Shown: positions 2,051 through 12,326, counted from the stretch's first letter. The stretch is 64,000 nt of DNA from an uncultured bacterium (GCA_965603725.1 CBFDEC010000006.1:5997-69996); one strand, 5' to 3'. A program made the numbers and translations. The notes: generated from the letters alone by a model not told the origin.

Positions 2051-2077
2051 AAAAAAACCCCCGCATGATGCAGGGGC
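2051..2077 (-). terminator. Rho-independent terminator on minus strand (GCCCCTGCATCATGCGGGGG + T7)
   Basis: The reverse complement gives a GC hairpin, CCCC(T)GCAT/ATGCGGGG, immediately followed by TTTTTTT. On the plus strand the same hairpin is preceded, not followed, by the A-run. Confidence 0.5.
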
Positions 2078-2618
2078 TTGAAAGCTGTGAGACCTGTTAG
2101 GCAATGATCCTCTGGAGGGGGGAAGAAGACCAGTTACCCGCCTCACAGCTCCGATTTATTTCGCAATCACAGTTATCTTCTCAATTGCATATTCCAAATC
2201 TAACTAATCCAATCAGCATTGTTTCCCCCTCTATGGCAAACATGTTGGCGGCATGTGTTTTTATCCATTTTTCGTGAAAAAATATAATATATATCATCCA
2301 TTTTGTCAAGAAAATCATTCAGTTTACCGCCATTTTTGATTATAATTTTTTGTTTTTTTCGAATTTCTCTTTTAACCATTTAGCCTCGAAAGCTTTTTTA
2401 AACCGCTTCATTCTTTCTTTGCTGATTCGATTCAATCGCGGCTTATTTGATTGATCATTTGAATTATGATTTCCCTGAGACTGCGACACGTTATCCTCCA
2501 AAATTGTCTGCCCATTGCAAGAGTAACGTCATGTTAAACAAGCTGTTATCGCCGATTTGATAATCAGATCATTTTGAAATTGGCATTATTTTTTAATAAT
2601 ACCAGCTATGCCTTGAAA

Positions 2619-2842: not shown

Positions 2843-4135
2843 TTAAAACCTTAATCCCATCGAGAGTGCGAAAACCGCTCCCTTGGTATTACCCGGCTTA
2901 AATGATCCGTTGTTGGCTATTGCCAGATCAAGACGAGTGGGTCCCATGTAAATGCCGAATCCGGTTGAATAAATTGTCCCTCTATCGCCGCCGAATGAGA
3001 GGCCGACTCTTAAGGGAAAGACATTAATAGGCCGGTATTCCAATCCAGTTGCCAAACGAGGAGTAACCGCCTGAGAAGCTCCGTTTGAGACGCCTTGTTC
3101 CCAGTCGATTGCCCAGGTTAATTTCCTGTAGGATCTGGCTAATCCAAATTTAATGACCGAGGGAAGGGTTGTTGAGAAACCATCGATGGAATAGGTCGTA
3201 TCGCTTGCTTCGATGAGTGAATCGGCTTTATCGCCGTCGGTTAAATCCCAGATAGTAGAGGGGTCCATATTGAAAGTAAACACCATTTCTTCAGTATCTT
3301 TATTCCAGTTGATTTTTGAATAGAAATTTTGCCAGGCCACGGAGAATCTCCAGTTGTCTTCAAAAATAATCGAGGCGCCAATATCAAAAGCCGATCCGGA
3401 ACCGCCAAGCGCTGAGCGGACTTTCATCATGGCTGAACCCTCCAGCACATCCTCAGAGGCAATCACACTTCCTTGAGCATAGGTAATTTTTTCATGAACT
3501 ATTCCATGCAGGTAGTGGAGACTTGCGCCTACTGCAAGTTCACCGCTCTGCCATTTTAATAAAGGATGCCCATATGAAATAGAACCATCGGCAACGGCAA
3601 AAGCCTCGCCGCGAGTGTCATTAAGAACTATATCGGATTTCACGGCGTTGCCATAGAACAACAGTTCGAACGGGTCTTTATCAAGGTTAAATTTCGAAGC
3701 CCCAAAGCCGCGGAAATTAAATGCCAGCCGCCATACCGAGAAATTCAATCCGGCGGCTTCAGTTAAAAAGTTTACTTTTAATCCTTCAGCCGGAATCTTG
3801 GCTAAAATATCTTCTTTATCTTCATCAGTTAAAAACTGTCCCGTGTAGCTATTGTAATCTGACAGCGAGAAGCTGTTGTTTTTGAAGTTGATACCTACGC
3901 TGAACAGGTCAAGGCTGAATGTGTGGTCGGTAGACAACCCGAGGTTGGCGGGGTTATAGGCTGAGGCCTCAACCCCTTCGCTGAGCGCTGTATAAGCGCC
4001 GCCCATGGCCATGGCCCTGGGATTTGATTCTCCCCAGGCAAATAGCGGACCAGCCGATAGAATCATAATGGCTAATGCCAGAATCGATATTGTTAGTTTA
4101 TTCTTGTTCATTTCAATCCCCTCCTTAATTTTCAT
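2843..4135 (-). CDS. FadL/TodX/PorV-family outer-membrane beta-barrel protein
   Basis: N-terminal signal peptide (LTISILALAIMILSAGPLFA). A FadL-like hatch motif follows (AMGGAYTALSEGVEASAYNPANLGL, compare E. coli FadL [24 protein letters not shown]). The protein is Gly/Ser-rich with an amphipathic beta pattern and a C-terminal aromatic residue (..MGLRF). Its start overlaps the stop of the upstream lipoprotein gene. Confidence 0.55.
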   Translation of the reverse strand: MKIKEGIEMNKNKLTISILALAIMILSAGPLFAWGESNPRAMAMGGAYTALSEGVEASAYNPANLGLSTDHTFSLDLFSVGINFKNNSFSLSDYNSYTGQFLTDEDKEDILAKIPAEGLKVNFLTEAAGLNFSVWRLAFNFRGFGASKFNLDKDPFELLFYGNAVKSDIVLNDTRGEAFAVADGSISYGHPLLKWQSGELAVGASLHYLHGIVHEKITYAQGSVIASEDVLEGSAMMKVRSALGGSGSAFDIGASIIFEDNWRFSVAWQNFYSKINWNKDTEEMVFTFNMDPSTIWDLTDGDKADSLIEASDTTYSIDGFSTTLPSVIKFGLARSYRKLTWAIDWEQGVSNGASQAVTPRLATGLEYRPINVFPLRVGLSFGGDRGTIYSTGFGIYMGPTRLDLAIANNGSFKPGNTKGAVFALSMGLRF

Positions 4136-6158
4136 CGTCGTTCCACAAATGCTCGCCGCCGATCACCCGGAACTCGGCGCTGGCGCTTATGTAAATGTAA
4201 TCACTGCCCTGTATCATACTTCCGTTTGGGCCTGTGGGCAAAAGCTCAATCTGAGGTATTATCTGAACATTTTCATTTTCAAATATTGCTATCTCAGAAC
4301 TGGAAAGCGTATCAATAAACGCCGAAACAACCGGCTCAACGGCAATGCCCTCATCATCGGTTATGGCGCTTTCCAGAGTAAAAGGTCCGACAGTCACGAT
4401 ATTTGGATCGCCGGCGGCTATAATCTTTAGCCCGACTCTTGCTCCAACCGGAAGTTGACTTGTAAGTTCAGCGTTGATTATACCGTGGACAAAAGTCTCC
4501 TGAAAATCGGGCATGTCCTCTGAATTTATTTCAACATCGTTGGTGTCAAGTTCAATTTCGGTTGTGTCATTTAATGAAAATGCAAGCGGCGAATAGATCT
4601 CTACTTCACCATAGAAGAAATCGTCTGTAGAAATAGTGACTACGCCGCCGCTGGGATTGAAGACGGCGCTGCCATCGATTGAAATTTGGGTCGGAAGCGG
4701 ATTTAAGAATGAACTCAATGTTGAGGATCCAATACTAATCACGGTCTCTTGAGGAACAGTAGCCCCTAATCCTTTTGCGCCAACAGTGGTATCAATTACC
4801 ACCGGGTCAACGCCGGGCTGGTCTGATGACAGCTGCATATCAACGGCAATATCTGAAGTGCTGTTATTGTATAGATACATAGTAAGTTCTGCCCGTGTTA
4901 ACTGAGCCTGGTCGAAACCTTCCGGCAGTTCGTCTACAGCCTGAGGGTCCAGTCCGATATCGATTGTGGTTGGCGCAATCTGTCCGGTAACCACAGAGAA
5001 AGCAATAGGAGATATCATCGCAGCAATCAGAATTGAATCGGTACTGTTAATATTATATAAACTATCTGGATTTGTTGCGATACTGGCTATGGCATTTACC
5101 TGTATACTTTGCGGGTCGGTTGTAGTATCTGGTTTTAAAACTGTACCTGCCAGTTCGATCACCAGGCTGTCACTTGAATTTTCTACGATGCTTGTATTAC
5201 GCGTTATAGGGACGCCGCTTTCTTCGATATTCGGAACAGAGAGGCTGATATCTATGGGTAGACCGGTGTTATTCTCGATCAGCAGGCTTAGTGACCCCGA
5301 TTCTATTGTGGCTTCATGAATTACGTTTCCGGTCTCAAGATCAAGGTCTATTGTATCTGCCAGAACCATATCAGGAGTGGCAGGAAGCTTAGCCCTGGCG
5401 CTTGATACTGAAAGATCGTTCGGAAATGAACTGTTGATTGTCAAATCTCCGGCTGGCGCAACTATTGCCTGCGAGTCAACAACGCCATAGACCCTTAATG
5501 TAAGTTCGTTCTTTATTAGTGAATCTGCCAGGTCAATTTGCACTACCTTTGTGCTGTCATCATATAATGTATCAAAATCTGCTGCTCCCAGTGGACTTAG
5601 CAAGTTGTCTGAATTAAATAATGTAATTGTAAGAGAATGAATATAAATACCGAGTTCGTTTGTTAGTTCCAATTGCAGTATACCTTGACTTATCTGAGCC
5701 TGTTCGAAATTGTCAAAAGCACTAAGAGCCTCATCTTGAGAAAAGGCTGTATCAAGCGGCACCTGGCCTAATGCAATATAGCCTGGATTGACTAAATCCG
5801 AAAATCCAAAGCTTGATTGTGGTATGATAGGGGCCTCGATATCCCTTTCACCCAGAGTTTGAGTAAATGGCTGTGGATTAATCGAATTAGTAGACGGCAG
5901 GTTGTCATCCACCATGATTGTATCGATCTCCTGGGTGATTGAAAAATACGGGTTGTTCGATTCATCAAAAGCGATCATAGAGCTGTCCAATTGATCCATG
6001 ATGTCATTTATGCTGTATTGTTTTGACGTTAGCGGCAAATCCCAGGTGGTTTCCCAACTCGGGGCTTCCGGTTTCTTTATTGAGCATCCCTGGAAAATCA
6101 GTAACAGCCCTGTGAATAGCAATAATAGAATCATGATTTTTAAATGAAAGGTTTTCAC
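4125..6158 (-). CDS. Large secreted lipoprotein (677 aa), function unknown
   Basis: Signal peptide plus lipobox (LLLLFTGLLLIFQGC|S). Composition is rich in S/T/D/N/I and looks beta-strand-like. Only one Cys and no catalytic signature recognised. It overlaps the downstream OMP gene by 11 nt, so the two are probably co-transcribed. Confidence 0.5.
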   Translation of the reverse strand: MKTFHLKIMILLLLFTGLLLIFQGCSIKKPEAPSWETTWDLPLTSKQYSINDIMDQLDSSMIAFDESNNPYFSITQEIDTIMVDDNLPSTNSINPQPFTQTLGERDIEAPIIPQSSFGFSDLVNPGYIALGQVPLDTAFSQDEALSAFDNFEQAQISQGILQLELTNELGIYIHSLTITLFNSDNLLSPLGAADFDTLYDDSTKVVQIDLADSLIKNELTLRVYGVVDSQAIVAPAGDLTINSSFPNDLSVSSARAKLPATPDMVLADTIDLDLETGNVIHEATIESGSLSLLIENNTGLPIDISLSVPNIEESGVPITRNTSIVENSSDSLVIELAGTVLKPDTTTDPQSIQVNAIASIATNPDSLYNINSTDSILIAAMISPIAFSVVTGQIAPTTIDIGLDPQAVDELPEGFDQAQLTRAELTMYLYNNSTSDIAVDMQLSSDQPGVDPVVIDTTVGAKGLGATVPQETVISIGSSTLSSFLNPLPTQISIDGSAVFNPSGGVVTISTDDFFYGEVEIYSPLAFSLNDTTEIELDTNDVEINSEDMPDFQETFVHGIINAELTSQLPVGARVGLKIIAAGDPNIVTVGPFTLESAITDDEGIAVEPVVSAFIDTLSSSEIAIFENENVQIIPQIELLPTGPNGSMIQGSDYIYISASAEFRVIGGEHLWNDDEN

Positions 6159-6381
6159 TTTACTTCCCCTCCTTCTAAAATTGTTGTTTACACTTCGATT
6201 TCAATTTTCTCAAAAAGACTACGGCAACCGTCATGCCATAACGCTGTAAACGCTTGAATCACTGTTTCATGCTTTTGTAACACATTGGTAATGTTTCAAT
6301 TAGAAAGTCATCAGAAATCAACATTATGAGATGCCTGGTTGAAGATTGAAAATTAATATAGGCTATTTCCCATACAGTTGG

Positions 6382-6421
6382 GGTTATCGCTATTGACATT
6401 AACCGTTATCGGCAATAAATT
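6382..6421 (+). promoter_or_regulatory. Sigma70-like promoter (TTGACA-17-TAAATT) with flanking direct repeats GTTATCG x2; candidate autoregulatory operator of the WYL regulator
   Basis: TTGACA at 6393-6398 and TAAATT at 6416-6421 with a 17-nt spacer. GGTTATCGC (6382-6390) and CGTTATCGG (6404-6412) bracket the -35 element. The regulator ATG is at 6428. Confidence 0.35.
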
Positions 6422-6427
6422 ACCAGT

Positions 6428-7306
6428 ATGAAAAAATCGTCGCGCCTGCTATATGCAATCACTCTGATTTTATGTAATCCCGGTATATCGGTAGCCCGTT
6501 TGGCCGATAAATGCGGCGTAACCGAAAGGACAATTTACCGGGATATTATCGATATCTCTGAAGCTAACATTCCCATTTACTTTGATAATGGCTACCGTAT
6601 CCTCGATACCGGGAAGGTGCCTCCGTTAAACTTCACCAGCGATGAGTTGATTTATCTGTATAACATTCTTCAAAGTAAGTCCCATAGCGAAGTGTTTGGC
6701 GGGGTTGGCAATAGGCTGGCGGATAAACTGAGACGTCACATTCCGGGAATCTTGAATGACAAAAATATCGGGTTTCATACTCATTCGACCGACACCACAG
6801 CCCTGGCAAAGATATTCGCCAGAATTGAAAAGACAATTAGTTCCGGCAAAATTATAAGTTTCAAATACACATCCTTAAACGGCAAGACATCCCGGCGAAA
6901 CGTTCATCCATACGGTCTTGTTTTCAGGGGTCATGGCTGGTACCTGGTCGGTTATTGTGAGGCAAGGGAAGAGGTCAGGATTTTCCGGCTTGTCAGGATA
7001 TCGAATTTACGGGCAATTCAAAAAAGGTTTGATAAACAGGCGGATTTTTCCATTGATGAGTTTATGGATGAAAGCTGGGCCGTTTTCAGGGGAGAGCATT
7101 ACAACTTTGAAATAAAATTTACCGGACCGGCGGCGGTTGCAGCATCTACAACCTGCCATCACAAAGATGAGAAAGTTGTAAAAAAAGGAAAAAACCACGT
7201 TATTTATAGCGTGAAATCCCGCGGCAAAGAGGAATTTATAAATGGGTGCTGTCATTCGGCAGGCATGCAGAATTGCTCGAACCGGTTCATCTTCGGCAGG
7301 AGGTAA
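6428..7306 (+). CDS. HTH + WYL-domain transcriptional regulator (YafY/PafBC-like). The C-terminus appears frameshifted; the full-length frame would end near 7345.
   Basis: N-terminal HTH_11-like segment (RLLYAITLILCNPGISVARLADKCGVTERTIYRDI). WYL domain (SFKYTSLNGKTSRRNVHPYGLVFRGHGWYLVGYCEAREEVRIFRLVRI). In the next frame the expected WCX tail appears from about 7242 (WVLSFGRHAELLEPVHLRQEVKKRLEASL...), after an A-run at 7238-7243. Confidence 0.7.
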   Translation: MKKSSRLLYAITLILCNPGISVARLADKCGVTERTIYRDIIDISEANIPIYFDNGYRILDTGKVPPLNFTSDELIYLYNILQSKSHSEVFGGVGNRLADKLRRHIPGILNDKNIGFHTHSTDTTALAKIFARIEKTISSGKIISFKYTSLNGKTSRRNVHPYGLVFRGHGWYLVGYCEAREEVRIFRLVRISNLRAIQKRFDKQADFSIDEFMDESWAVFRGEHYNFEIKFTGPAAVAASTTCHHKDEKVVKKGKNHVIYSVKSRGKEEFINGCCHSAGMQNCSNRFIFGRR

Positions 7307-7387
7307 AAAAACGACTGGAAGCTTCTTTGAGCAAATATATATAGAAACCATGGTGTTCATTATCTTTTTGATATTGAAAACGCCCAT

Positions 7388-7753
7388 TTGATGTGTTCGA
7401 TATTAAACATGACCAAAAAATATTGTAAAATCTGCGGCGCCGAGTGGGAAGAAAATTTCAATGAGTGCCCCAACTGCGGTATGCCCGCTGATCCCGACGA
7501 GCAGTTGTGGTTTGACAAGGATGCCCGTAAGCGCCTTGAAAGGAAACAAAGGAGAGGCATAAAAAAGCCGATACGCCGCCCTTCGAAATTGAATCGGGGA
7601 ATATTCCTGCCGTTGATCCTTGGTACCGGCGCAGTGTTGCGGATTATTGCCGGAGGTGGGTTTTCAACATCGACTTTGACTTTTGATATAATCGGCATTG
7701 CGATGTTCGTAATCAGCGTGGGGTATATTGTAAAAGCGAAATTAATACGTTAG
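7388..7753 (+). CDS. Zinc-ribbon (CxxC...CxxC) small membrane protein, hypothetical
   Basis: CKICGAEWEENFNECPNCG zinc ribbon, then a basic linker (KRLERKQRRGIKKPIRRPSK), then two predicted TM helices. The true start may be M at 7409 (MTKKYCKIC). Confidence 0.5.
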   Translation: MMCSILNMTKKYCKICGAEWEENFNECPNCGMPADPDEQLWFDKDARKRLERKQRRGIKKPIRRPSKLNRGIFLPLILGTGAVLRIIAGGGFSTSTLTFDIIGIAMFVISVGYIVKAKLIR

Positions 7754-8153: not shown

Positions 8154-8160
8154 AAAGGAT

Positions 8161-8232
8161 GCCCCCGTAGCTCAGTGGATAGAGCATCGGCCTCCGGAGC
8201 CGTGTGCGGCCGTTCGAGTCGGCCCGGGGGTA
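8161..8232 (+). tRNA. tRNA-Arg (anticodon CCG)
   Basis: Manual cloverleaf fold. Acceptor GCCCCCG/CGGGGGT with a G1:U72 wobble. D-arm GCTC-AGTGGATA-GAGC. Anticodon arm TCGGC-CTCCGGA-GCCGT with one U:U mismatch at 27:43. 4-nt variable loop. T-arm GGCCG-TTCGAGT-CGGCC. Discriminator A, no encoded CCA. Closely resembles E. coli tRNA-Arg(CCG). Confidence 0.8.
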
Positions 8233-8341
8233 TAATGATCATGACAAAACGCTGACGGCCGGTTTGATTATGCGGTGAAAATGGCAGGAGAATTATCAAT
8301 AAACATTATCCTTTATTTGACGATTTTTCTATTATATACAA

Positions 8342-8409: not shown

Positions 8410-10125
8410 ATGCTTTGGACAAAAACATTTATCCCTACCTTACGTGATGACCCGGCTGATGCTGAAATCGCTTCGCATAAACTTCTGGTACGGGCGGGCT
8501 ACATCAGGAAGCTGACTGCTGGAATATATAACTACTTACCCTTAATGCAGCGAACAATTCATAAAGTCATGAATATAGTCCGTGAGGAAATGGACGCTGC
8601 TGGCGCCATAGAGATCACCATGCCGGTATTGCATCCGGCCGAATTGTGGCAGAAGACCGGTCGCTGGGATACAGTCGGGAAAGAGCAGATGCGTATGAAA
8701 GATCGTCACATGCGCGATATGGTCCTGGGCGGCACTCATGAGGAGGTGGTTACCTGGATCGCCCGCGGCGAAATCAGAAGCTACCGTCAAACGCCGATTA
8801 ATATGTACCAGATTCAGGTAAAGTTCCGTGATGAGATCCGTCCCCGGTTCGGCCTGATAAGGGGACGTGAATTCATTATGAAAGATGCGTACTCATTCGA
8901 TGTAGATGAGGCAGGTCTGAAAGTCGCCTATGAAAAAATGGCGGAAGCGTATTTCAAGGTGTTCAAGCGATGCGGTTGCGAGGTTAAGATAGTCGAATCG
9001 GATGTCGGCGCCATGGGTGGTTTTGGCGCGCACGAGTTCATGGTTCCTGTTGAAACCGGCGGTGGAGAGGAAATAATTCTATCGTGTGATAGATGCAATT
9101 ATGCCGCTAATATAGAAAAAGCCATTTCGTTTCACGATGAAGAACTGGTGACCGAAAAAGAACATAAAAGTAAAGAGATGGTTTTTACCCCCAACATGAA
9201 GACTATTGAGGAAGTCACCGAATACCTTAAATTGCCCCCAGAGAGACTGCTAAAGACTTTGATATATTTAGCTGATGGCAAACCCATAGCGGCGTTAATT
9301 CGCGGTGATCGAAGTATTAATGAAATCAAGCTCTCAAATCATCTTCGCAGCCTCGAACTTGAAATGGCCGACCCTGAAACTATTATGAAACTGACCGGCG
9401 CCCTGGTGGGTTTTTCCGGACCTGTTGGTTTAAGAGGCGTGCACATTATCGCTGATCATGAAATCAGGCAGATGGTTAATTTCGTAGTTGGCGCCAATAA
9501 AGATGACACTCATATTATCAATGTTAACCTTGAAGATTTCCACATTGATGAATATGCTGAGCTCCGCAATGCCGAAGCCGGTGAAAGATGTCCTCGCTGT
9601 GGAACAGGACGTCTCCAGGCGTTTTCCGGCATAGAGGTCGGCAACCTGTTCATGCTGGGTACAAAGTATTCCGAAGCTCTGGATGCGACCTTTGTCGATG
9701 AAAACGGCGACGAGAAACCGTTCGTGATGGGGTCATATGGAATAGGTATAACCCGTACCGCCCAGGCGGCAGTCGAGGCGTACCATGATGACAAAGGGAT
9801 TATCTGGCCAAAAACTATCGCGCCCTACGATTTCCATATCATCCCCTTGAGCATGGACAGCGAAAAGCACAGAGAGATTGCGTTTTCACTTTGCGATGAA
9901 CTTGAGAAGGCTGGTTATTCGGTACTCATCGATGACCGTGACGAGCGTCCCGGCGTCAAGTTCAACGACGCCGACCTGATCGGCATGCCGATACGTATTG
10001 CAATTGGGGACAGGGGGCTTAAAGAAGGCATTATAGAGATAGTCCGACGCAAAGACCTGTCAGTTGAGAAGGTCTCGATTGATATGGCCGCAGAAAAAGC
10101 TATTGAGATTTGGGAGGCGTTGTAA
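8410..10125 (+). CDS. proS: Prolyl-tRNA synthetase (bacterial type, with editing domain)
   Basis: The N-terminus MLWTKTFIPTLRDDPADAEIASHKLLVRAGYIRK is the canonical ProRS start. Class II motifs are present. Length 571 aa. Confidence 0.95.
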   Translation: MLWTKTFIPTLRDDPADAEIASHKLLVRAGYIRKLTAGIYNYLPLMQRTIHKVMNIVREEMDAAGAIEITMPVLHPAELWQKTGRWDTVGKEQMRMKDRHMRDMVLGGTHEEVVTWIARGEIRSYRQTPINMYQIQVKFRDEIRPRFGLIRGREFIMKDAYSFDVDEAGLKVAYEKMAEAYFKVFKRCGCEVKIVESDVGAMGGFGAHEFMVPVETGGGEEIILSCDRCNYAANIEKAISFHDEELVTEKEHKSKEMVFTPNMKTIEEVTEYLKLPPERLLKTLIYLADGKPIAALIRGDRSINEIKLSNHLRSLELEMADPETIMKLTGALVGFSGPVGLRGVHIIADHEIRQMVNFVVGANKDDTHIINVNLEDFHIDEYAELRNAEAGERCPRCGTGRLQAFSGIEVGNLFMLGTKYSEALDATFVDENGDEKPFVMGSYGIGITRTAQAAVEAYHDDKGIIWPKTIAPYDFHIIPLSMDSEKHREIAFSLCDELEKAGYSVLIDDRDERPGVKFNDADLIGMPIRIAIGDRGLKEGIIEIVRRKDLSVEKVSIDMAAEKAIEIWEAL

Positions 10126-10203
10126 AAACAAAATATTTGATATGAGTAACAGTCATAAGTATAATATATTTTTGTTAGAATAAATATTTTAAATGGATTA
10201 AAG

Positions 10204-11202
10204 ATGAAGTATTTCTTTTGCAGGCTAAGTTGGATGGAATTATATCAAGGTTGTTCTTATGATAAGCCAATATATGGCGGGAAATTCCCAGAGGAAGAAG
10301 GATATTGTTTTGAATCATATAATTTTAAACCTTATAGAAATCATCTTTATGGTTTTGTAAAAAGTCGAAATTATAATTCAAATATATCAATTGAAAATTT
10401 AGGAGCACAAAAAAAGGATAATTCCATTAAAGATATTACTGTTGTTTATTTTGCCACAAAACCAAAAACTGGCGGGCAATATATTATTGGATGGTACAAA
10501 AACGCAACCGTATTCAGGCACTTTCAGAAAAATCTACCAAAGAAAACTGGTAGAATATTTCCTAAATGGAACTCTAATGAAGTAATAGGTTATCATATCA
10601 AGGCATCCATAAAAGATGCTATTTTACTTCCTCCTGAGGAGAGGGTTTTTAAAATCTTACATAAATCTGTTGGAGGACCAGGGATTTCCCAGTTGTGGTA
10701 TTGTAATAAAGGTAATAAAGAACAATTAAAGTTTTTAAAGGATGTTGAATATTACATCAAGTATAGAAAGTTGCCGAAATCTATAATATCAAAAAGAAAA
10801 TCTTCAAAAAAAGTACTCCAAGATTATAAAAAGATAAAGGAAACTGAATTAAAAGCAATGAATATTATTAAAGAGTATTATTATTCGTTGGGATATGTTA
10901 TCGATGATGTAAGTAAAGATAATCTTGGCTATGACTTGGAAGCTTATAATGATAACAATTTATTGTATCTTGAAGTAAAAGGATTATCAAGCAATAACCT
11001 TTTTACTGAATTAACTCCAAACCAATTTCAAACAATGAATGATAATAAGGATAATTATAGGATTTGTATTGCAGCAGATATTTCAACAAAAAAACCAATT
11101 ATTTATATATTCAGATATTCTTATGAGAAAGGTTGCTGGATTGACCAGAATAGTAATAAATTGATTATAAAAAGAAAAACTGGTGCTAAGATATGGATTT
11201 AG
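10204..11202 (+). CDS. Hypothetical protein in an AT-rich island; the C-terminal region is PD-(D/E)xK/DUF3883-like (putative nuclease); N-terminal domain unknown
   Basis: The gene and its upstream spacer look about 30% GC against roughly 45-50% in flanking DNA. The C-terminal segment GYDLEAYNDNNLLYLEVKGLSSNNLFTELTPNQFQTMNDNKDNYRICIA fits the D...ExK core and the DUF3883 (NO VEIN C-terminal) pattern G.D...EVK...f.LT.nQ. It is lysine-rich. Confidence 0.5.
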   Translation: MKYFFCRLSWMELYQGCSYDKPIYGGKFPEEEGYCFESYNFKPYRNHLYGFVKSRNYNSNISIENLGAQKKDNSIKDITVVYFATKPKTGGQYIIGWYKNATVFRHFQKNLPKKTGRIFPKWNSNEVIGYHIKASIKDAILLPPEERVFKILHKSVGGPGISQLWYCNKGNKEQLKFLKDVEYYIKYRKLPKSIISKRKSSKKVLQDYKKIKETELKAMNIIKEYYYSLGYVIDDVSKDNLGYDLEAYNDNNLLYLEVKGLSSNNLFTELTPNQFQTMNDNKDNYRICIAADISTKKPIIYIFRYSYEKGCWIDQNSNKLIIKRKTGAKIWI

Positions 11203-11215
11203 AAAATATTTTAAT

Positions 11216-11308
11216 GCGTCAGGATGGAAACCCGCCTAAGGCGGGTGACATATTAACGCTGCGGCGGAGAAACCTTCATGGTGTCGTTCCTTCCATCCTG
11301 AGGGATAT
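11216..11308. repeat. MITE-like structured repeat, copy A (TIR GTCAGGATGGAA ... TTCCATCCTGAG)
   Basis: Shares GCGTCAGGATGGAAA...GCGGCGGAGAAA(C/T)C..TGTCGTTCCTTCCATCCTGAGGGATAT with copy B. The two differ in an internal segment, and this copy has an internal hairpin CCCGCC-TAA-GGCGGG. Confidence 0.7.
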
Positions 11309-11353
11309 GAAATGGGCGTAGGGGTTTGATTAATCAAACCTCTGCAGTTTAGT

Positions 11354-11437
11354 GCGTCAGGATGGAAATGAAATGACATCCTGACGTTGCGGCGGAGAAA
11401 TCCTCAGGATGTCGTTCCTTCCATCCTGAGGGATATA
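11354..11437. repeat. MITE-like structured repeat, copy B
   Basis: Same termini as copy A. It has two internal hairpins with the same arms (GTCAGGATG/CATCCTGAC and CCTCAGGATG/CATCCTGAGG). Confidence 0.7.
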
Positions 11438-11471
11438 AAGACTTTGCAAGTAATAACCGGAAAGGTAAAAG

Positions 11472-12326
11472 ATGAAACTCGGCAATCTTGAATTGATATC
11501 GATACTGGAAAACAGTTTCAAGCTCGATGGCGGGGCAATGTTCGGAATCATCCCCAAAATTATCTGGAGCAGGATGGTTACTGCTGATGAAAACAACCTT
11601 ATTCCTTTAGATATCAATCCGCTTATTATCAAAACCGGCGATGAAATTTTGCTAGTCGATGCCGGTTTCGGCGACATCTTAAACGAAAAGCAAATGAAGA
11701 TATTCGGCATTAGCGGTCCTACTCGCTGGGATCATGAGCTTAGCCAAAATAATATCAAACCAGAGGATATCACCGGTGTAATATTTACTCATCTTCATTC
11801 CGATCACGCTATGGGAGCTTTGAAAAAAGGCGATGACGGCGAACCCGAGCTGCGTTTTCCCAATGCTAAATACTATGTCCATAAGCGTGAATGGCAGGAT
11901 TCTATAAATCCCAATGAGCGCACGGCCGCTACATATTTCAAGAATCATCTGCGGCTGTTTGAACAGTCCGGCAAACTTGAGCTTCTCAATGGCGATACGG
12001 AGCTTTTTCCCAACATTCATATCAAGCATCTTGGTGGTCATACTCCGGGCATGCAGGGAGTCATTATAGATGCAGACGGTCAGCGCGTAATATATCCCGG
12101 TGATTTAATCCCGCTTCAATACAATATCAAAATACCTTATGTCCCGGCTGTTGACCTTGACCCTATCGCCTCGATGAACCAGAAACGCTGGCTTGTTAAA
12201 AAAATGCTGAAAGAGGACTGGATTTTAGCGTTTGACCATGACATCGAGTTTAAATTTGCCAGGTTCAAGATAGATGATAAGGGGAAAGTCATCCCGGTTA
12301 AGATTGATCAAGAATATGTAATGTAA
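11472..12326 (+). CDS. MBL-fold metallo-hydrolase
   Basis: HxHxDH motif (THLHSDHAMGAL) and later His/Asp ligands (HLGGHTPG, DHD). Length 284 aa. Confidence 0.8.
   Translation: MKLGNLELISILENSFKLDGGAMFGIIPKIIWSRMVTADENNLIPLDINPLIIKTGDEILLVDAGFGDILNEKQMKIFGISGPTRWDHELSQNNIKPEDITGVIFTHLHSDHAMGALKKGDDGEPELRFPNAKYYVHKREWQDSINPNERTAATYFKNHLRLFEQSGKLELLNGDTELFPNIHIKHLGGHTPGMQGVIIDADGQRVIYPGDLIPLQYNIKIPYVPAVDLDPIASMNQKRWLVKKMLKEDWILAFDHDIEFKFARFKIDDKGKVIPVKIDQEYVM

Follow-up and report, generated by a model that had tools for sequence, protein, structure and literature searches.

A DUF5723 outer-membrane barrel and its conserved lipoprotein partner: a possible cargo-dedicated, PorV-like docking pair in uncultured bacteria

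Within a stretch of 64,000 nucleotides (nt) of DNA from an uncultured bacterium, hereafter the window (GCA_965603725.1 CBFDEC010000006.1:5997-69996; coordinates given without a locus name are positions in it), the genes of a DUF5723 outer-membrane barrel and of a large lipoprotein follow each other on the minus strand and face a divergent gene for a WYL-domain regulator. Named homologues assign the organism to the candidate phylum Zixibacteria. We propose, at slightly less than an even chance, that the pair is an inducible, cargo-dedicated docking barrel of the PorV-like kind with an obligatory lipoprotein partner, present in the window in a reduced form, the cargo being an M6 metalloprotease encoded directly 3' of the barrel gene in most relatives. 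Gene linkage, folds, family scores and motif conservation are the observations on which this proposal is built. What is new is that a DUF5723 barrel is almost always paired with a lipoprotein family for which there is no Pfam model, and this in several uncultured phyla. FadL-fold barrels serving as docking platforms and not as channels are a recent theme, exemplified by PorV and PorQ in type IX secretion and by BamG in the barrel-assembly machinery, and the locus described here would represent a further branch, large and unannotated.

A sequence-only reading of the window had described four open reading frames (ORFs) in 2843-7753, and ORF calling verified all of them: the barrel, the lipoprotein, the WYL regulator and a zinc-ribbon protein. 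The lipoprotein gene (4125..6158, minus strand, 677 aa) is the first gene of the operon and the barrel gene (2843..4111, minus strand, 422 aa from Met9) is the second. The two had been described as overlapping, which is true of the longest ORFs, since that of the barrel extends to 4135 and shares 11 nt with the lipoprotein gene. Given that the homologues are 421-424 aa long, the barrel probably starts at Met9, position 4111, in which case the genes do not overlap and the 11 nt are probably an artefact of choosing the longest ORF.

In order to follow the pair in other genomes, one genome per species was scanned with the barrel alignment; the resulting 80 loci had their ORFs called and were then searched with the barrel and lipoprotein profiles. 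The lipoprotein gene was found immediately 5' of the barrel gene and on the same strand in 59 loci, a count that includes three redundant locus pairs. The pairing first noticed in the window is hence a conserved unit. Co-occurrence across genomes had been named as the check on the proposed association, and linkage proved to be conserved both for the pair, in these 59 loci, and for a divergent WYL gene beside it, in 23. The pair loci are labelled Zixibacteria, Latescibacterota, Neomarinimicrobiota, WOR-3 and others, and they include one clade labelled 'Calditrichaceae', for which the homologue search returned uncultured sequences only, candidate division KSB1 being the sole organism name. The labels 'Ignavibacteriales' or 'Calditrichaceae' of several metagenome-assembled genomes (L014, L018, L021, L023, L025-L028, L036, L043-L046 and L062) clash with their gene order, which fits either the Zixibacteria loci or the clade whose only named relatives are KSB1; such doubtful organism labels are unfit for phyletic conclusions. 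Two Neomarinimicrobiota loci (L067 2888-8255 and L068 4691-11400) carry tandem duplicates, namely a protein of 556 aa, a barrel and a lipoprotein of 754 aa. A second barrel follows in L068, the contig of L067 ends before that point, and genes resembling metK and ahcY lie upstream.

Strict one-to-one adjacency of the two genes would also be expected if the barrel were a dedicated translocon by which its own lipoprotein reaches the cell surface, Slam-like in spirit and offered by the sequence-only reading as its alternative, and the conserved N-terminal segment of the lipoprotein described below could then serve as its export or recognition signal. We consider this very improbable, since a plugged FadL-fold barrel of ~420 aa is too narrow for a 70-kDa multi-domain protein, and in the known cases with this fold, BamG/BamH and PorV with its cargo, the barrel offers a docking site and not a passage. 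Nothing supports a relation to Slam/DUF560 proteins, a comparison aimed at them not having been made.

The barrel is a member of Pfam family DUF5723 (PF18990), with 64.6 bits against a cut-off of 26.8 and an E-value of 1.7e-17. Nearly all of its homologues match the same model, and the NCBI name of its relatives is 'DUF5723 family protein'. It has a FadL-type fold with an N-terminal plug, as in the PorV/PorQ family, and the plug motif AMGGAYTALSEGVEASAYNPANLGL is present. Membership of that family was assessed with the NCBIfam models NF033709 (family), NF033710 (PorV), NF033711 (PorQ) and NF052325 (PorV2). The barrel reached 40.3 bits with NF033709, below the cut-off of 90, 15.2 bits with the PorQ model (cut-off 220) and 12.3 bits with the PorV2 model (cut-off 325). 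Nine of ten distant barrels tested also fell below the PorV/PorQ cut-off, the tenth, L085, being a true PorQ-like outgroup. With the BamG model (NF053685) the score was 19.2 bits against a cut-off of 250, and the match covered residues 39-90 only, that is, the plug motif shared at the N-terminus; PorV/PorQ scores exceeded BamG scores in each of the ten distant family members. Furthermore, the barrel profile matched PorV and TbuX in the PDB, and no BamG chain was found at E<=10. Overall, the barrel is closest to PorV/PorQ by sequence and adopts a FadL fold in the predicted structure.

The barrel had been suggested to be a PorV-like shuttle. A PorV/PorQ-like sequence and a FadL fold agree with this, but the role of general PorV shuttle does not hold, given the sub-threshold family score and the presence, in the related Zixibacteria locus L007, of a separate bona fide PorV/PorQ-family barrel with 210 bits. 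Since L007 has a true PorV/PorQ gene of its own, the DUF5723 barrel is an additional paralogue and not the general shuttle.

The plug motif, with its NPA, is common to FadL-type transporters, and it is over this motif that TbuX aligns. Hence a different role can be envisaged, in which the pair is a nutrient-uptake device made of a FadL-type channel, importing hydrophobic compounds by lateral diffusion, and a jelly-roll lipoprotein as substrate binder at the surface, while the M6 protease would release substrates outside the cell. A few members of the barrel family do match the Toluene_X model of Pfam (PF03349), but the window barrel shows no such match at E<=0.1 in the Pfam search, and its sequence favours PorV/PorQ, which are not transporters. 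Inducible sigma-54 control, for which evidence is given below, is typical of catabolic systems, and the domains of the lipoprotein resemble, among others, carbohydrate-binding jelly rolls; against this, the neighbourhood holds no conserved catabolic or inner-membrane transport genes, and no lipoprotein is known to be required by FadL channels. We therefore regard an uptake function as improbable.

The other member of the pair was confirmed as the lipobox-bearing protein of 677 aa that had been noticed in the window. Its signal peptide ends in FQGC (...LLIFQGC25S...), and Cys25 does not vary among 13 close or among 35 diverse relatives. No Pfam or NCBIfam model matched it, and no Pfam domain was found in any member of its family. 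The family is large: a full profile search retrieved 1,963 cluster representatives, compared with 13 matches in a first word-based search, and the members so far all come from uncultured phyla related to the Fibrobacteres-Chlorobi-Bacteroidetes (FCB) group. Beyond the signal peptide the protein is an all-beta array of tandem jelly rolls, whose domains are similar to jelly rolls of the carbohydrate-binding and PNGase F types and to a surface glycan-binding protein of Bacteroides. The best-conserved block of the family is the lipidated cysteine with the 18 residues that follow it. This N-terminus of ~20 residues has a low predicted local distance difference test score (pLDDT) in the monomer model, which suggests a tether that is bound to a partner.

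A conserved, lipidated N-terminus next to a FadL-like barrel is also what characterises BamG and BamH, two subunits of the barrel-assembly machinery of Bacteroidota that were described in two papers in 2025 (PMC12611786, PMC12578637). BamG has a FadL-like barrel structure, and the surface lipoprotein BamH inserts its conserved, lipidated N-terminus into BamG as a wedge (PMC12578637, PMC12611786). The pair studied here could accordingly be an accessory of that machinery of the BamG/BamH type, or a BamG2/H2-like paralogue, with the barrel binding BamA and the surface lipoprotein covering, like a canopy, the site of outer-membrane protein insertion; we judge this the main alternative, though an unlikely one. 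A further mark of BamG is an N-terminal extension of ~10-12 residues in comparison with FadL, which passes through the lateral opening. The pattern of N-terminal conservation is the same. The gene pairing is similar too, as in many FCB species the locus tags of bamG and bamH follow each other in number (IALB_1455/1454, GAU_1453/1452, Cabys_4206/4207, FSU_1156/1157 and BT_1785/1786; Supplementary Table 1 of a paper that does not state how homologues were searched for). Moreover, the present pair is widespread in FCB-related phyla, and in several of them it lies beside likely housekeeping genes with neither protease nor WYL gene. Set against these similarities are the barrel scores reported above, with a BamG match limited to the shared plug motif, a higher PorV/PorQ score in all ten distant barrels, and no BamG chain recovered from the PDB by a profile that did match PorV and TbuX. 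Sequence and fold searches likewise gave no relation of the lipoprotein to solved BamH chains, and a literature search by locus tag gave no link between the pair and the published BamG/BamH genes from outside Bacteroidota. Conditional control of the sigma-54/WYL type and co-transcription with a secreted protease are unexpected for an essential assembly subunit, and the tandem duplicates of L067 and L068 also speak against such a role.

The preferred reading, that of a cargo-dedicated docking barrel, draws on a third gene. Next after the barrel, 43 loci have a gene belonging to one and the same cluster, and 38 of these genes encode a protein of ~575 aa with an intact HExxHxxGxxD motif; in this 38-locus set the gap between the barrel and M6 genes is mostly 4-33 nt. 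The representative in L001 has an M6 domain (TIGR03296, 233.7 bits), a FlgD_ig domain and a type-A type IX C-terminal domain, the type-A tail being called from TIGR04183/PF18962 matches. The sequence-only reading had based its idea of a secretion role on three type IX cargo proteins in the window, and three such C-terminal domains were indeed found by tblastn. The link to type IX secretion is strengthened by the M6 protease with a type-A tail, as seen in representatives, in the cluster 3' of the barrel in those 43 loci. This conserved association, with the type-A tail in representatives and an intact M6 gene after the barrel in 38 loci, supports an M6 protease as the proposed cargo. Cognate PorV-like barrels are known to be encoded beside their cargo (review PMC10202324).

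Two observations on other barrels can be added. L081 (9890-12874) encodes a bona fide member of the PorV/PorQ barrel family (171 bits) and, 70 nt further on, a protein of 650 aa with a type-A type IX tail, which makes it another barrel gene beside a possible cargo. In Porphyromonas gingivalis, the DUF5723 protein Q7MT24 is listed directly beside the type IX C-terminal-domain protein Q7MT25 (PMC12937337, Table 1). The consecutive accessions hint at adjacent genes, and the link between barrel and cargo may thus reach Bacteroidota.

In the window itself the protease gene is missing. Its place in the relatives corresponds to 877 nt (1966-2842) without a long ORF, and tblastn found no remnant of an M6 catalytic domain anywhere in the window, as only three unrelated C-terminal domains matched. 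Two blocks of these 877 nt are 78-80% identical to the sequence 3' of the M6 gene in L003-L006, and in one of them a strong hairpin precedes a run of T on the minus strand (2079..2055). A small basic ORF of 53 aa (...ISKERMKRFKKAFEAKWLKEK...; 2340..2501, minus strand, the strand of the operon) lies 3' of the barrel gene in the same interval and is 53% identical to an ORF of 47 aa that follows the M6 gene in L003 (13173-13316). Conserved at a length of 47-53 aa (...ISKER..RFKKAFEAKWLKEK...), this small ORF follows the M6 gene in L003 and the barrel gene in the window. The candidate of a protease remnant in the window was rejected, the gap being conserved downstream sequence without one. A different state is seen in L004 (11380-11949) and L005 (10971-11540), where an M6 remnant of 189 aa joins the N-terminal portion of the protease to the last part of its C-terminal domain; the third gene has thus decayed independently in a close relative of the window. 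The window is a reduced module, with the protease gene deleted and the WYL gene frameshifted, in which the pair and its promoter elements remain.

These promoter elements are located in the 269 nt between the lipoprotein gene and the divergent WYL gene, in agreement with the ~270 bp initially given. A sigma-54-type -24/-12 element, TGGCATGACGGTTGCC, occupies 6238..6223 on the minus strand, ~65-80 nt 5' of the lipoprotein start codon, and is followed by a strong Shine-Dalgarno sequence (GGAGG). The pattern GGCAY-N5-WTGC has this single match in the 64-kb window. Of 57 loci, 36 have the element on the sense strand 5' of the lipoprotein gene, mostly at a distance of 55-80 nt, with 37 matches per 18 kb of lipoprotein-upstream sequence versus 57 per 2.6 Mb elsewhere, an enrichment of ~95-fold. 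It is aligned in close relatives, with GG-N10-GC at a conserved position, as in a sigma-54-type promoter. A hairpin at 6242..6218 had been taken as terminator-like; this was rejected, since the alignment shows it to be the -24/-12 element. In addition, the three loci with a gap of ~300 nt between the barrel and M6 genes have an extra sigma-54-like element before the M6 gene, which supports a probable co-regulation of the protease with the pair.

The second element is an 18-bp palindrome, TATAGGCTATTTCCCATA (consensus TATRGG-N6-CCYATA), at 6357..6374, a candidate operator or upstream activating site between the divergent promoters. It is centred ~129 nt 5' of the -24 GG, and the WYL ATG follows 54 nt after its end. 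A distance of ~129 nt from a -24 element is typical of an activator site. Allowing up to one mismatch, 35 copies were found in 26 kb of lipoprotein-upstream sequence versus 10 in the other 1.3 Mb, which is an enrichment of ~170-fold. The palindrome has a single match in the window and is present in 31 of 55 loci, including some that have no WYL gene beside it. A TTGnnn-17-TATATT promoter directed towards the WYL gene adjoins the palindrome in many loci. The case for the palindrome and for the sigma-54-type element is made by their positional conservation across loci, a single occurrence in the window being in itself not significant.

On the other side of the intergenic region, a sigma-70-like promoter, TTGACA-17-TAAATT (6393..6421, plus strand; 10/12 in the consensus scan), lies directly before the WYL gene. 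It is a candidate by consensus match, and its CTATTGAC box is kept in L001, L003, L004 and L008. Two copies of GTTATCG (6383-6389 and 6405-6411, plus strand) flank the -35 box, and these direct repeats had been put forward as an element of the WYL promoter. Two copies of a heptamer carry little weight by themselves. They are not conserved at the aligned positions in the relatives, and the heptamer is over-represented throughout the window, with 18 copies, mostly on the plus strand, versus 7.3 expected, a count that none of 100 shuffles reached. Recurrence upstream of the lipoprotein gene had been suggested as a check, and no copy is nearer to that gene than 6383. The repeats, being near the WYL gene only and not conserved, were rejected as operator in favour of the palindrome, and are probably not a functional element. 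The window-wide excess of GTTATCG is an observation with no link to the locus studied.

The regulator gene (6428..7344, plus strand) encodes a protein with HTH_11 (34.9 bits) and WYL (75.3 bits) domains, both above the Pfam threshold, and its orthologue in L001 also has a WCX domain (PF25583), so that the family shows the helix-turn-helix (HTH)-WYL-WCX architecture. The WYL-domain regulator recognised at first is thus present and divergent, but the window copy is frameshifted. Indeed, the ORF as read ends at 7306, and its product is 65% identical to the intact L001 orthologue of 305 aa over residues 1-272 only. A one-base frameshift lies near 7243 (AAT(T)GG; region 7225-7344), and the conserved C-terminal ~33 residues (WVLSFGRHAELLEPV...SKYI*) are encoded in a different frame, which runs to 7344; either the gene is truly inactivated or the assembly may be at fault. 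In the 23 loci in which the divergent WYL gene adjoins the lipoprotein gene, barrel identity to the window decreases to ~37% and the genes beyond the WYL gene vary. Because the WYL gene recurs while the outer flanks differ, a functional linkage of regulator and pair is favoured over inherited synteny. A role of the WYL gene in a defence system was considered and rejected, since PADLOC gave generic WYL matches only and no defence genes are adjacent. We know of no outer-membrane target of a WYL regulator so far.

Taken together, the lipoprotein and the DUF5723 barrel would form a two-subunit outer-membrane complex related to the PorV/PorQ docking barrels. In this model the barrel would be a FadL-fold platform in the outer membrane, and the lipoprotein would be tethered to it by its lipidated, conserved N-terminal ~20 residues, with the jelly-roll domains extending from the barrel. 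The ancestral operon would have had three genes, the third encoding a co-transcribed, InhA-like M6 metalloprotease exported by the type IX system, and this protease would be held or handled at the cell surface through binding of its C-terminal domain to the barrel. Known parallels for a cargo on a barrel are PorU on PorV, PorZ on PorQ and SprB with SprF. Expression of the operon would not be constitutive and would start from the sigma-54-type promoter, the required activator ATPase being presumably encoded elsewhere. Since the palindrome ~130 nt upstream of that promoter is also at the divergent WYL promoter, it is probably the operator of the WYL regulator.

Several results weigh against this model. 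The barrel scores below the PorV/PorQ threshold, and no GAFTGA-motif protein, that is, no sigma-54 activator of the enhancer-binding ATPase type, was found in the window. The palindrome persists at loci without an adjacent WYL gene, so the WYL protein is a candidate binder only. The window and L004/L005 have lost the protease yet retain the pair, and because of this the function of the pair would be independent of the M6 cargo. Finally, Latescibacterota, Neomarinimicrobiota and the KSB1-like clade have the pair without the M6 gene, the WYL gene, the palindrome or the sigma-54-type element, and in these clades it adjoins genes that resemble metK and ahcY by sequence inspection. Given this distribution in distant phyla and these neighbours, the ancestral role of the pair may be a housekeeping one.

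A wider proposal, which we offer as a possibility well short of even, is that DUF5723 barrels and their Pfam-less jelly-roll lipoproteins constitute a third, hitherto undescribed class of FadL-fold platform in the outer membrane, distinct from PorV/PorQ and from BamG/BamH, and that the class would provide an inducible station capturing one specific type IX cargo, an M6 protease, controlled by a sigma-54 promoter and a palindrome read by a ligand-sensing WYL regulator. If the pair is cargo-dedicated, the partners are defined, namely the barrel, the N-terminus of the lipoprotein and the C-terminal domain of the M6 protease, and so is the control region, with the palindrome, the sigma-54 promoter and the WYL regulator. 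If the pair is instead of the BamG/BamH type, it would show the extent of divergence of these subunits beyond Bacteroidota and, in one clade, their conditional control. Either way, the annotation of ~2,000 clusters of 'hypothetical protein' would be improved.

Downstream of the WYL gene, a zinc-ribbon protein with two transmembrane segments (7409..7753, plus strand, 114 aa from Met8) is encoded as initially noticed. Its longest ORF is 7388..7753, and on comparison of sequences it probably starts at Met8, position 7409. The protein has a CxxC...CxxC pattern, weak Pfam matches (E 0.0025) and two hydrophobic segments, and is 73-81% identical to its orthologues in L001 and L003. Its gene was seen only in the window, L001 and L003-L006, and in L003-L006 it stands where the WYL gene would otherwise be, at an equal distance from the palindrome. 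The protein had been counted as part of the unit; as it is kept with the pair only in these close relatives, it was rejected as a member. The association looks like local synteny, and membership is doubtful.

Beyond the zinc-ribbon gene lie a tRNA-Arg (8160-8233) and then the prolyl-tRNA synthetase gene. A protein of 332 aa (10204-11202) has a NOV_C, restriction-endonuclease-like, C-terminal domain and gave weak PADLOC matches to the C-termini of TmtA and HmaA. Its gene sits within a stretch of low GC content (0.36, 10001-12000) adjoining the prolyl-tRNA synthetase gene, and may be a mobile or defence-related insertion. In the relatives, two convergent genes recur in 20-25 loci among L013-L049, at ~2-7 kb 3' of the barrel gene (e.g. 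L013 13555-17058). The pair encodes an MXAN_6640-family HExxH metalloprotease with a dockerin domain and an Omp85-family protein of 550 aa, which may be a second outer-membrane protease system. It was rejected as a member of the regulon, having neither the palindrome nor the sigma-54-type element.

Compared with known systems, the regulator resembles PafBC, BrxR and CapW in its HTH-WYL-WCX architecture, its divergent arrangement and a palindrome at its own promoter, and differs from them in that its likely target is an outer-membrane operon with a sigma-54-type promoter and not a defence or DNA-damage locus, and in that the window copy is frameshifted. From the FadL/TodX/TbuX channels the locus is set apart by the lack of a Toluene_X match for the window barrel and by the lipoprotein partner and type IX cargo in the operon. 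With BamG-BamH (PDB 9N2D, 9HJ3, 9HJM) it has in common a FadL-fold barrel, a lipoprotein whose conserved lipidated N-terminus is the likely dock, and genes that in many FCB genomes have consecutive locus tags, whereas neither partner shows a detectable sequence relation, the lipoprotein has no specific fold match, and the locus has sigma-54/WYL-type control and a protease in the operon. The PorP/SprF-like barrels, as in SprF-SprB, are similar as cargo-specific barrels encoded beside their substrate (PMC10202324); the locus differs by a cargo tail of type A and not type B and by the lipoprotein in the unit, and no PorP/SprF-family model was among the matches of the DUF5723 barrel. In relation to PorV-PorU and PorQ-PorZ, the locus barrel scores 40 bits against the cut-off of 90 and is an extra paralogue beside a bona fide PorV/PorQ gene, its partner peptidase is an M6 metalloprotease, whereas PorU is a sortase of the cysteine type, and the obligatory upstream lipoprotein has no counterpart there. 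However, it is with these systems that the DUF5723 barrel has its best sequence relation, together with the FadL fold and the same N-terminal plug motif, and in most relatives a peptidase gene with, as seen in representatives, a type-A tail comes next after the barrel gene, just as porV adjoins porU.

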